The notes beneath the pieces are model-generated. The model made no database searches. It saw only the letters and a list, made by a program, of their open reading frames with translations, and had not been told where the DNA came from. A program made the translations under genes and the position numbers. From the IMG/VR virus record IMGVR_UViG_3300033153_003795, positions 1 to 63,869 of that record: DNA of 63,869 bases. One strand, written 5' to 3'. Below are positions 3,631 to 7,782 of this stretch, piece after piece. The DNA comes from a virus. Its lineage: Duplodnaviria; Caudoviricetes. The first letter of the stretch is position 1. Every line of letters starts with the position of its first letter.

Positions 3631-4725
3631 ATGGCATTTCTAAAAACAGATAAGAGTAAAATAAAAAAACCTTATAAGCTAAGCAGGAAAGGTACTAACC
3701 ATGCACCAGGAGCACAACAACGGCTGTACCTAATTGAGTTTAGAGATGATAGTGGATACTACATAAAGTGCGGAAAGGCTAGTGGTAGTAGTTGTGGAGA
3801 AAGACTATCCTGTATAATAGAAAGCTACTTTAATGCCAGTGGAGGATGTTGTCCTTATGCTAAAGTCCTTAGAGACGTAGAGGTAACTGATGTATTTAAA
3901 CGAGAAACAGAATTTCACCACAACTTTAAGAATAGACGTCATTACCCTACGCATAGTTTTTCTGGGTACACAGAAATGTTTGCTATAACTAAGGAAGAGG
4001 CATTAGTAGCGTTTGATGAAATCGTGGGTAAGCAGTATAATAGAGCTACCACCAAAAAGTGCTACACATGTAGTAGAACTAAAAGTACAATAGAGTTTCA
4101 CACAAACAAAGCCAAAAAAGACGGCTTAAACCACGATTGCAAAGAGTGTACACTACATAAGCAGCGTAGTTATAGCGCATTACCGTACCGTATGTATTCT
4201 AATCAAATAGAACACTCCAAAACTAGGGGTCACCCTAGACCAGAGTACACCCGTCAAGAGTTTAAGTTATGGGTAACAACACAAGGTAAGTACAATAAAC
4301 TATATGAGCAGTATAAAGCTAGTGACTACGATAAACGACTAGTTCCATCGGTAGACAGACTAGATCCTATGCAAGGATACAACTTCAGTAACATAGAACT
4401 AGTAACTTTCATAGAGAATATGAAACGTAATGGTGATGTGCAGAAAAAAGTATCCGGTAAACCTGTGATAGCTATAGATAAACATTCTGGGAAAGCTGTA
4501 GCAGAATTTCAGACCCAGAATGAGTGCGCTAAAGTACTAAAGTTGTGCACAAAAAAGATATGCTCTAAAGTGGATAAAGTTTTGAGTTATGGGTGGATGG
4601 CTACAATAGGAGACTATCAACTAGTTAGTAAGCATAACGAGAATAATTTTATGCGTAATGGTTGGCTAAAACCTAGGTATAGGTATAAAAGGAAAGACGA
4701 TGTTCCTGAAAATAACGAGGCCTGA
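3631..4725 (+). CDS. Composite endonuclease: GIY-YIG/T5orf172-like + Zn finger + HNH-like + NUMOD1-like HTH
   Basis: LYLI..YIKCG..ETEFH..GYTEMF; KKCYTC..K..EF..DGL...CKEC; PSVDRLD..GY..NI.LV...EN; C-terminal KPV/EF..QNECAK. Confidence 0.65.
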   Translation: MAFLKTDKSKIKKPYKLSRKGTNHAPGAQQRLYLIEFRDDSGYYIKCGKASGSSCGERLSCIIESYFNASGGCCPYAKVLRDVEVTDVFKRETEFHHNFKNRRHYPTHSFSGYTEMFAITKEEALVAFDEIVGKQYNRATTKKCYTCSRTKSTIEFHTNKAKKDGLNHDCKECTLHKQRSYSALPYRMYSNQIEHSKTRGHPRPEYTRQEFKLWVTTQGKYNKLYEQYKASDYDKRLVPSVDRLDPMQGYNFSNIELVTFIENMKRNGDVQKKVSGKPVIAIDKHSGKAVAEFQTQNECAKVLKLCTKKICSKVDKVLSYGWMATIGDYQLVSKHNENNFMRNGWLKPRYRYKRKDDVPENNEA

Positions 4726-5744: not shown

Positions 5745-5959
5745 TAGAATTTAATAAGCATTTTGTATCTTAACGAATGTTTACAGATTTTATATATTTT
5801 AGCGAGAAAATATATTGGTACTAGTAAGATAAGGTAATCAGCGCCTTCTAGGTCGAAAGATAAGCGGGAACCTAAGTGCAGAGAATGATATGATTTCTCT
5901 GTTTAAATAACAGTCACTATATAGTATGCCCCTTTCGGCCTTGGAACTGAGATGTTCTA
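5745..5959 (+). ncRNA. Putative structured ncRNA inside the tRNA array
   Basis: Several hand-folded stems, including 5846-5859 with 5932-5946; ends complementary; no credible ORF. Confidence 0.5.
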
Positions 5960-5971
5960 CTATGTAAATAT

Positions 5972-6049
5972 GCTCCCTTGACCCAACTGGCAGAGGTGAC
6001 GGGCTTAAAACTCGTTTACGTATCGGTTCAAATCCGATAGGGAGTACCA
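5972..6049 (+). tRNA. tRNA-Leu(UAA), short variable loop
   Basis: ACGGG-CTTAAAA-CTCGT arm, CCA. Confidence 0.85.
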
Positions 6050-6052
6050 AAT

Positions 6053-6128
6053 CTTCACGAAGCACAAACGGTCGTGCAACGGATTCCAAACCCGTAGGTT
6101 GTAGGTTCGATCCCTATCGTGTTGGCCA
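6053..6128 (+). tRNA. tRNA-Trp(CCA)
   Basis: CCA anticodon, G73, CCA end; two U-U mismatches in the acceptor stem. Confidence 0.8.
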
Positions 6129-6140
6129 AAGAAGGAAATT

Positions 6141-6236
6141 ATGAGAGATAAAGATAATAGGAAGATTACACAATCAAAGAAATCCTATAATAGAAAGAAA
6201 ATTAAAAAGGTGTGTGTCGGTAGCCCAATTGGTTAG
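6141..6236 (+). CDS. 31-aa basic minigene with ArfA-like motif, running into tRNA-His
   Basis: AAGGA RBS at 6132-6136; MRDKDNRKITQSKKSYNRKKIKKVCVGSPIG*. Confidence 0.45.
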   Translation: MRDKDNRKITQSKKSYNRKKIKKVCVGSPIG

Positions 6237-6291
6237 AGGCAGGTGGTTGTGATCCATCTTGTTGTGAGTTCGAGCCTCACCCGTCACCCCA
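6214..6291 (+). tRNA. tRNA-His(GUG)
   Basis: GTG anticodon, C73, CCA; position -1 is T, not G. Confidence 0.85.
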
Positions 6292-6292
6292 T

Positions 6293-6367
6293 ACTCTGTT
6301 AGCTAAATGTAAAGCACTGGACTGCAAACCCAGAGATTTATCGGTTCAAGCCCGATACAGAGTTCCA
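6293..6367 (+). tRNA. tRNA-Cys(GCA)
   Basis: GCA anticodon, U73, CCA. Confidence 0.85.
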
Positions 6368-6371
6368 ATAT

Positions 6372-6447
6372 GCCGTCGTAATTCAACTGGATGAAATTCG
6401 TGCTTCTAACGCGAAAGTTGGGGGTTCGAATCCCTCCGATGGTGCCA
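6372..6447 (+). tRNA. tRNA-Arg(UCU)
   Basis: TCT anticodon, TTCGAAT T-loop, CCA. Confidence 0.85.
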
Positions 6448-6449
6448 AT

Positions 6450-6521
6450 GCCCTTGCTTGAGGATAAGATTCCGGCCTTCGAAGCTGGTAATTGAAGTTT
6501 CGATTACTTCCAAGGGCTCCA
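6450..6521 (+). tRNA. tRNA-Arg(UCG) with truncated D-arm
   Basis: GCCCTTG/CAAGGGC acceptor, CCGGC-CTTCGAA-GCTGG arm, CCA. Confidence 0.75.
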
Positions 6522-6552
6522 AAAATAAACAAAAATAATAGAGGAACTACAC

Positions 6553-6999
6553 ATGAATACATTTGACATAGACTACATTAAAACATTTATCGCTGCTCAT
6601 GAGGATAGTAAAGTGTATTTAGGCGTAGATTCTCAAAGAGCAAAGAAAGATAAAATAAAATTTGCGACGGTTGTTATTATACATTATAATGGGTGTAATG
6701 GAGCTCGCGTATTTCATGATATTACTTACGATAAGATTGCAGATGCCAAACTTGGTCGACCATTTAATCGTATGATGAAAGAGGTACAACTAGTTACTGA
6801 ACTATACACTAAGCTAGAAGACGTGTTAATTGATAGAGAGTTTGAAATTCACCTTGACATAGCTGAGGATCCCTGTATGGGGTCAAGTGTAGCTGCTGGA
6901 GCAGGAAAAGGATATATATACGGAATGGTTGGAATTCCTCCAGTAATGAAACCTGATGCGTGGGCAGCAAGTTGTTGTGCAGATAAGTATAGTAAATGA
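6553..6999 (+). CDS. RNase H-like YkuK/DUF458 family protein
   Basis: VYLGVDSQ...EIHLDI...G.S...GYI.G...KPDAWAAS..AD motifs. Confidence 0.8.
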   Translation: MNTFDIDYIKTFIAAHEDSKVYLGVDSQRAKKDKIKFATVVIIHYNGCNGARVFHDITYDKIADAKLGRPFNRMMKEVQLVTELYTKLEDVLIDREFEIHLDIAEDPCMGSSVAAGAGKGYIYGMVGIPPVMKPDAWAASCCADKYSK

Positions 7000-7095: not shown

Positions 7096-7782
7096 GTGCA
7101 TTACACGATATACAAAACTACAAATAACGTAAACAACAAACACTATATAGGTGCGCACGCGACAACTGATGCTAATGACAAATATATCGGCTCAGGAAAA
7201 CATTTGCTTCGAGCGATAAAAAAGTACGGAACAGCATCCTTCAGTAAAGAGGTAATCTTTATGGCAAAGTCAGAAGCTATAATGTATTGGATTGAAGAGA
7301 TGTTAGTCGATAGAGCGTACGTAAATAATGTAAACAGTTATAACCTTAAAACCGGCGGGAAATCAGGAAGCGGTCTAAATAGATTTACGAAAGAAGAATC
7401 TTGCGCTATATGGAAAAAGAGATCCGAGTCTAGTTTATGGGTAAACGGCAAAACCTATGAGGAAATTTACGGAAAAGAGCGTGCAATTGAGCTTAAAAAA
7501 CTTCGAAGCGATACCTTTAAAAAGATAGACAAGAATGGAGCCAAGAACCCAAGAGCTGGTTTTGTAACTGTGTACAACGCTTCTTCTGAAGTCGTGCATG
7601 AGTTTGATGGAACATTTAGAACTGCAACAAAAGAGCTTGGATTACCGACAAACGCTCTGTTACAGTCATACTTGAACGGCGGAGTTAAAATATACGAGAA
7701 CATAGTAGACAATGGTAATATAGCTATTCTTAAATCAAAAGGATTTTATAAGTATAAAGGATGGTACGCAATAAAAAGATAA
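7096..7782 (+). CDS. GIY-YIG (Seg-like) homing endonuclease
   Basis: YTIYKTTN..NNKHYIG.H...Y.GSG..L..AIKKYG...F.KE...YN. Confidence 0.85.
   Translation: MHYTIYKTTNNVNNKHYIGAHATTDANDKYIGSGKHLLRAIKKYGTASFSKEVIFMAKSEAIMYWIEEMLVDRAYVNNVNSYNLKTGGKSGSGLNRFTKEESCAIWKKRSESSLWVNGKTYEEIYGKERAIELKKLRSDTFKKIDKNGAKNPRAGFVTVYNASSEVVHEFDGTFRTATKELGLPTNALLQSYLNGGVKIYENIVDNGNIAILKSKGFYKYKGWYAIKR

Follow-up and report, generated by a model that had tools for sequence, protein, structure and literature searches.

The window analysed here, the whole stretch of 63,869 bases, is an IMG/VR virus record with a completeness estimate of 56% and encodes an SU10-type portal. It carries a tRNA cluster from 5201 to about 6518, in which ARAGORN identified 11 tRNAs and Rfam added two more, at 6053-6125 (42.7 bits) and, weakly, at 6450-6518 (32.3 bits). 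The former is a tRNA-Trp(CCA) on the plus strand, which was missed by ARAGORN and ends at 6128 with an encoded CCA (6053..6128); its near-identical counterpart in L009, another carrier of the gene described below, is recognized as tRNA-Trp by ARAGORN. A Shine-Dalgarno-like GAAGGA (6131..6136, plus strand) lies 3 nt past this CCA, and 4 nt separate its AAGGA (6132-6136) from an ATG at 6141-6143. This ATG opens a minigene of 31 codons plus TAG, MRDKDNRKITQSKKSYNRKKIKKVCVGSPIG (6141..6236, plus strand), which is present in the ORF list and matches the profile of its own family with 60.3 bits (E 1.7e-17). The first 20 codons (6141..6200, plus strand) encode the conserved core M[RK]xKxNRKITQSKKSYxRKK of alignment A2. 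Downstream follows tRNA-His(GTG) at 6214..6291 (plus strand; ARAGORN, and 44.9 bits by Rfam at 6214-6288), so that same-strand tRNA genes flank the minigene on both sides. The minigene fills the 85-nt spacer between tRNA-Trp and tRNA-His, whereas most tRNAs of the cluster are 0-6 nt apart. A consensus-site scan found no promoter-like or terminator-like site in this spacer (6129-6213), and the frame would therefore be expressible only from the tRNA precursor transcript. Further upstream, the cluster is split by a 227-nt gap (5745-5971), in which two promoter-like matches overlap (5770-5816) and no noteworthy ORF is present; this gap may be the start of a sub-operon containing the minigene.

The first 23 nt of tRNA-His double as codons 25-31 and the stop of the minigene. 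The TAG (6234..6236, plus strand) is located in the D-loop, with the cloverleaf read by eye, five codons past the usual stop of the family. RNase P is the established enzyme of tRNA 5'-end processing, and from this role and the tRNA boundary its expected site is the 5' end of tRNA-His (6213..6214, plus strand). A cut between 6213 and 6214 is predicted to leave a message of 24 whole codons and 1 nt without a stop codon. The first-pass annotation had described the same ribosome-binding site, the ATG at 6141 and its translation, the TAG within the tRNA-His D-loop and the 24 codons left by 5' processing; sequence and ORF list, the ARAGORN and Rfam boundaries together with the cloverleaf, and the position of the boundary agree with these statements. 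The tRNA-His itself has a T at position -1, a C at position 73 (by eye; 6213-6214 and 6288) and a T-T mismatch in the acceptor stem. An extra G-1 is usual in bacterial tRNA-His, and with a T at this position it would therefore not be encoded. An exact 30-nt pattern of this tRNA-His matched none of the viral contigs. Weak tRNA-like matches were also seen at L003:6808-6875 and L004:8821-8888, with 35.3 bits each.

Through a neighbouring protein of 616 aa, two viral contigs (70% identity) were identified, which have the tRNA order Leu, Phe, Leu, Trp, gap, His, Cys in common with the window. Their 127-nt Trp-His gap contains AAGGA followed after 7 nt by GTG-KDKHNRKITQSKKSYTRKTKHKNR-TAG. Two patterns, the first of them a degenerate DNA pattern, and two scans guided by the profile recovered further copies, namely on three more viral contigs, at twelve metagenome loci and on one further viral contig, L147. 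After removal of identical copies we counted 15 distinct versions at the DNA level, namely the window, L003, L006, L009, ten from metagenome contigs, and L147. Alignment A2 comprises 14 rows, with the identical peptides of L004, L008, L018 and L022 left out; L147 and the seven library proteins P0126-P0132 were found after A2 and stand outside the codon test and the shuffle test. Searching 1.84 billion protein representatives with the profile returned seven matches at E<=0.001, six of them new and one being the L025 version, and all seven matched protein clusters are unnamed or "hypothetical". A gene of 26 codons is shorter than the minimum length of common gene callers, which may be the reason why so large a collection holds only seven cluster representatives.

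The core is common to all versions, and a typical member has 26 residues. Alignment A2 contains 13 invariant columns in 14 sequences, with the consensus MRDKDNRKITQSKKSYNRKKLxKxxY. Along the 14-codon stretch NRKITQSKKSYxRK, the third position varies in all 14 codons, the first in five and the second in four. The serine codons of the core swap between TCN and AGY and the arginine codons between AGR and CGN, and AAA and AAG are exchanged as well. The pooled pN/pS over these 14 codons is 0.067, with synonymous differences near saturation; a near-invariant core at such saturated sites therefore implies a very conserved target. In addition, the start codon of all 14 versions is preceded, at a distance of 5-8 nt, by an AAAGGA/AAGGA-type (or AAAGG) site. 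The frame at 6141-6236 is thus more than a chance one, because conservation of the coding type recurs in 14 other distinct versions, and we regard it as almost certainly a true gene of the phage, encoding a strongly basic micro-protein. The same codon pattern indicates that the gene is translated and under strong purifying selection. The earlier suggestion of a real minigene is supported by this recurrence, and conservation of the peptide in relatives, which had been put forward as a check, was found in that every version keeps the KKSYxRK core. It is extremely improbable that the frame is no gene, that is, an accidental reading frame in an A-rich spacer or a regulatory leader in which Lys and Arg codons matter: an A/G-rich spacer does favour Lys-rich open frames, but the residues are invariant across saturated synonymous sites, AAA/AAG swaps included, and standalone copies come with promoter-like sites of their own and are followed by no tRNA. 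A leader peptide or attenuator was considered as well and ruled out, as residues rather than codons are conserved.

The position of the stop codon divides the versions. Thirteen of the 15 have their own stop, and the stop lies inside tRNA-His in two, the window (23-nt overlap) and L009 (16-nt overlap), whose tRNA-His sequences differ considerably. Six versions have their own stop followed by a tRNA at 1 nt (L023), 6 nt (L020), 12 nt (L019), 21 nt (L006), 28 nt (L003) and 43 nt (L024) downstream. The other seven (L016, L017, L021, L025, L026, L027 and L147) have their own stop, no tRNA in the examined flanks and ordinary small phage genes around them. The family usually stops at codon 27, and in the window this position (6219-6221) is already tRNA-His sequence. 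The truncated product without a stop would be 24 aa in the window and 23 aa in L009, and in both cases the whole conserved core is retained.

These placements bear on a model in which the peptide is a minimal rescue factor of the ArfA type. Its message would be made non-stop by RNase P, and the product would be destroyed through tmRNA unless trans-translation is saturated; the peptide that then accumulates would enter the empty mRNA tunnel and promote release. We consider this model rather improbable. The overlap in the window and L009, with a truncated product that keeps the core, agrees with it, as do the stops of L023 and L020, which precede the 5' end of the tRNA by just 1 and 6 nt. However, 13 of the 15 versions have their own stop, and in L147 the TAG of the upstream gene abuts the peptide ATG while the peptide TAA overlaps the next ATG (TAATG), so that this copy is built for normal termination. 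In addition, library members carry C-terminal extensions, one of them a 78-aa form fused to an acidic tail of 58 aa, which indicates that the 3' end is unconstrained. An RNase P-made non-stop message, as the first-pass annotation had proposed, is therefore physically possible in the window and L009 but is contradicted as a family mechanism by the 13 versions with their own stop; likewise, the search for the same ORF/tRNA overlap in relatives, which it had suggested, succeeded for L009 and failed for the other 13. Judging from these 3' ends, the stop-in-tRNA design would be a lineage trait at most.

When the 3' ends of 12 other versions were folded, the stop codon was located within or directly beside a hairpin with z <= -3 in four of them (L017, L021, L025 and L026); hairpins were weaker in L020 (z -2.3) and L024 (z -1.9), and nothing was seen in the remaining six. 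The four stop-codon hairpins recall the hairpin of arfA (PMC8012679), and they are the only feature that might extend the non-stop idea beyond the window and L009, though they may be ordinary 3' stabilizers. In L024, a perfect hairpin of 12 bp (CATGAAGAACTT...AAGTTCTTCATG, L024:1585-1627) fills the spacer from the peptide stop to tRNA-His. The peptide of L147 is the middle one of three translationally coupled micro-genes (30, 25 and 29 aa; L147:2256-2515) between two DNA-polymerase-like ORFs, and the last of the three encodes a four-cysteine, zinc-ribbon-like peptide.

General searches connected the peptide to few known sequences. A blastn search of 5900-6560 for close relatives in GenBank phages matched only tRNA-Leu, and tblastn of the peptide against GenBank phages gave no match at E<=10. 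Among sequencing runs, no RNA run is listed as a carrier, and one DNA run contains a small share. No family for the peptide was returned by Pfam, NCBIfam and PADLOC-independent scans. In PHROGs, seven of ten peptides matched phrog_20887 (function unassigned) weakly, with E values of 0.0012-0.19, and E. coli ArfA did not match it. Against PDB sequences, the L003 peptide had nothing at E<=10; the family profile had one match, a chance KKSYDRKK in a glycine-betaine-binding protein, and ArfA was absent from the result. The search for a cellular homologue gave 83 pattern matches in one genome per species (185,579 species), none of which was confirmed, and the family profile found nothing at E<=10 in the E. 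coli chromosome and one Escherichia genome. The best ESM Atlas score was 0.82, which serves as a lead only, and a DUF7230 lead yielded nothing useful. A complex prediction of RF2_ECOLI with the peptide alignment scored 0.00, which, being run without controls, gives no verdict and weighs neither way. In the literature searched, no title or abstract described the peptide or a phage ArfA-like peptide; supplementary gene lists may differ.

We compared the peptides with ArfA from E. coli (annotated record), 25 enterobacterial homologues and three diverse ones. Alignment A3 holds 25 ArfA sequences chosen for low identity to E. coli ArfA among the 120 matches listed (730 found). The diverse sequences came from a class-level search in which four of 300 genomes matched and one was not scored; the other searches gave enterobacterial ArfA only. 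The motif KKGKGSYxRK, which the first-pass annotation had ascribed to ArfA, is present in the ArfA sequences compared. Pfam PF03889 matched none of ten phage peptides at E<=10, with E. coli ArfA as control at 89.5 bits (cut-off 25.5), and it matched nothing within the window. The ArfA HMM comparison proposed earlier as a check thus went against membership, and by these profiles the phage peptide is not a member of the ArfA family.

A directed test nevertheless revealed some likeness. BLASTP aligned the L003 version to E. coli ArfA with 9 identities in 14 positions (E 7e-5 for that pair), and hhalign paired SKKSYNRKKIK with GKGSYMRKGKH at an E of 0.021 and a probability of only 2.3%. With an HMM of 28 ArfA sequences, the real peptides scored 3.9-9.1 bits and beat 92.1-99.9% of 1000 composition-preserving shuffles each (p 0.001-0.08; window p 0.039); the best results came from two versions with a KH pair (p 0.001-0.002). 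Among 537 six-frame segments, including the E. coli ribosomal-protein operon, the best four profile matches were four ArfA frames. The phage core keeps the K, S, Y, R and K of the ArfA motif, and both glycines of ArfA KGKGSY, found in all 25 aligned and the three diverse sequences, have given way to an invariant S and K. The alignment covers ArfA aa 24-48 only, with no counterpart of aa 1-23; just seven residues (MRDKDNR), charged and not hydrophobic, precede the aligned segment. Demo et al. (PMC5378476) place ArfA aa 31-48 in the mRNA tunnel, which they fill, and aa 21-30 in the A site; the conserved hydrophobic N-terminal region (about aa 2-30) becomes ordered, contributes a strand to RF2 and opens it. 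The similarity to the tunnel segment of ArfA therefore appears modest: above chance in the directed test, but weak and short, and too short to prove either common descent or common function. What stands of the earlier ArfA-like assignment is KxSYxRK above shuffles, whereas the lack of a PF03889 match, the absent N-terminal half and the replaced glycines speak against it.

For the rescue-factor model, this comparison adds evidence on both sides. The motif likeness to the tunnel segment argues for it, and so does the KH pair that follows the core in L003, L024 and L006 (3 of 15), as in ArfA and BrfA (PMC8012679); L023 ends in KH. However, the peptide has no equivalent of the part that opens RF2 in ArfA (aa 1-23; PMC5378476), and the ArfA HMM recognizes none of the ten peptides. 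The resemblance to ArfA is that both proteins are small and basic, that phage K-x-S-Y-x-R-K with its flanking lysines is close to ArfA KGKGSYxRK, and that the window message is predicted to be able to lose its stop by RNA processing, as arfA mRNA loses its own via RNase III or termination with a hairpin involved (PMC8012679). The differences are that the phage peptide lacks an HMM match, a hydrophobic RF2-activating N-terminal region and the invariant glycines of ArfA, that its conserved part is N-terminal and that of ArfA central, and that the gene is phage-borne and ends at a normal stop in 13 of 15 versions.

Genomic context brings the peptide close to components of translation. Eight of the 15 versions are in tRNA clusters, between differing tRNA pairs (Trp-His, Leu-His, Phe-Trp, Pro-Arg, x-Cys and Leu-Cys), and seven have no tRNA in the examined flanks, one of which lies inside a DNA-polymerase gene region. 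In L026, a metagenome contig of 1 kb, 63 nt separate the peptide gene from an upstream smpB (198-635; Pfam SmpB E 6e-39), which encodes a short but complete protein of 145 aa with an HDKR tail; the peptide gene is preceded by an extended -10 promoter-like site of its own. This promoter-like motif, about 45 nt long and with TGGTATAAT, is present both before (640-700) and after (790-850) the peptide gene. None of 20 other viral smpB loci holds the peptide. L002, which is related more distantly (its RNase H-like protein shows 62% identity), has a tmRNA in its tRNA cluster (1054-1411; Rfam 86 bits; ARAGORN tag peptide ANTNTYTYEGALVA) and a decayed peptide copy, MCTIFNDSLVNFKIVQSKRSSNRLQFGG, just upstream of tRNA-Cys; no SmpB was found in L002 within 105 kb. 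The complete 155-kb relative G001, in which the peptide is present, has no SmpB, RF-1 domain or tmRNA above cut-off, and five related viral records contain neither SmpB nor an RF-1 domain. The smpB and tmRNA neighbours, each a single case, hint at ribosome rescue. Because tRNA clusters are known collecting places for small inserted genes, location alone is no proof of a role in translation. Homology to the SmpB tail was also considered and rejected, as hhalign gave a probability of 0.15% for L026 SmpB against the peptide and BLASTP no alignment.

Taken together, we favour, with slightly better than even confidence, a phage micro-protein expressed from a tRNA operon whose gene runs into tRNA-His in particular lineages and whose target is likely an RNA of the translation apparatus. 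The minigene would be transcribed within the tRNA operon, and the ends of its message would be set by tRNA processing. Loss of spacer in the lineage of the window would have removed the stop at codon 27 and added five codons up to a chance TAG in the D-loop. This overlap would be tolerated, as the variable C-terminus is presumably unimportant and the conserved core stays untouched; competition between translation and RNase P would give some non-stop messages in the window. The peptide would recognize a conserved RNA within the translation apparatus. The 30S mRNA tunnel or decoding region is the foremost candidate, given the likeness of the core to ArfA aa 31-48 and the rescue-related neighbours; the peptide would act without the RF2-activating part of ArfA. 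A ribosome- or RNA-binding peptide is our best guess, and we give a target in the translation apparatus about an even chance.

Three further readings differ in what the basic core does. One holds that the peptide binds nucleic acid outside the ribosome, such as tRNA precursors or their processing enzymes, a tRNA-directed host defence nuclease, or phage DNA, and that its likeness to ArfA arose by chance. This reading is unlikely, though the eight copies in tRNA operons suit it, as do the seven copies among ordinary small phage genes (the one in the DNA-polymerase gene region included), the exact KKSYDRKK occurring by chance in an unrelated solved protein, and the form fused to an acidic tail. 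It is opposed by the similarity to ArfA beating shuffles and by ArfA outranking basic ribosomal proteins in a small test set, and no family or fold links the peptide to such a function. In another reading, which seems very improbable, the peptide would lodge in the vacant mRNA tunnel or the A site and compete with host SmpB-tmRNA, ArfA, ArfB or mRNA loading, so that translation quality control of the host would be redirected or shut off. A likeness restricted to the tunnel segment, with no effector half, is consistent with such a plug, and the extreme conservation of the core fits a conserved rRNA target. A synthetic SmpB-tail peptide is described as inhibiting tmRNA-SmpB on the ribosome (review PMC8012679). 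The motif support, however, is as weak as for the rescue-factor model, and the tmRNA or smpB carried by relatives fits rescue support better than blockade.

The third, for which we see only a small chance, is that the peptide could be a minimal sensor of the empty mRNA tunnel on ribosomes stranded at message ends during infection, with its dose set by RNA processing. The 20-residue core would thread into the vacant 30S tunnel, and the peptide would either complete rescue with a host factor or shield ribosomes from host rescue. In the lineage of the window, RNase P would strip the stop, and the peptide would be tagged by tmRNA and lost as long as rescue capacity lasts; a hairpin over the stop codon may stand in for RNase P in other lineages.

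Several known systems offer parallels to the micro-protein. Like the peptide, mitochondrial messages punctuated by tRNAs are flanked by tRNA genes and released by tRNA processing, some of them without a complete encoded stop; the phage arrangement differs in belonging to a bacterial virus, in concerning a single gene of 26-31 codons and in being optional within the family. The C-terminal tails of SmpB and ArfB are likewise basic and probe the empty mRNA tunnel (PMC8012679), and the L026 member directly follows a phage-type smpB gene. However, L026 SmpB has no sequence similarity to the peptide, and the SmpB and ArfB tails belong to larger proteins. BrfA and ArfT, compared here by description only, are short, unrelated basic proteins able to do the job of ArfA. 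ArfA and BrfA are described as sharing only the tunnel KH motif (PMC8012679), which follows the core in the three phage versions named above. ArfT is described as belonging to a repeat family linked to stress proteins (PMC6514570), and the phage peptide is unlike it by any scan run. Huge phages are reported to carry tmRNA, SmpB, RF1 and RF2 (PMC7162821). Such phage-borne translation parts, tRNAs included, share the genomic neighbourhood and theme of the peptide, but they are recognizable homologues of cellular components, whereas the peptide has no cellular homologue in the search of 185,579 species.

The locus is thus a predicted case, in a bacterial virus, of a protein-coding message cut from a tRNA precursor. 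Maturation of the tRNA and termination of translation are predicted to compete for the same bases in two lineages, those of the window and L009. The tRNA-operon location, the single smpB neighbour and the ArfA-like motif suggest that the family could, if this holds true, represent a minimal ribosome-rescue or anti-rescue peptide of phages.

Other features of these tRNA clusters were also observed. Two ORFs, likely of the homing-endonuclease type, flank the cluster of the window at 3631-4725 and 7096-7782; a weak match to SegE GIY-YIG (E 0.0013) was returned for one of them and weak zinc-finger-like matches only for the other. At L002:2117-2246, a full-length tRNA model match extends over 130 nt (43.1 bits), as would be expected if an insertion of about 55 nt interrupted a tRNA gene. 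An RNase H-like gene (PF04308) at 6553-6999 follows the tRNA cluster of the window, and such a gene also lies after or within the clusters of several relatives (L020:1679-2140, L023:2210-2692, L024:2022-2468 and L002:3001-3444). The gene seems to accompany these tRNA clusters as a conserved partner.
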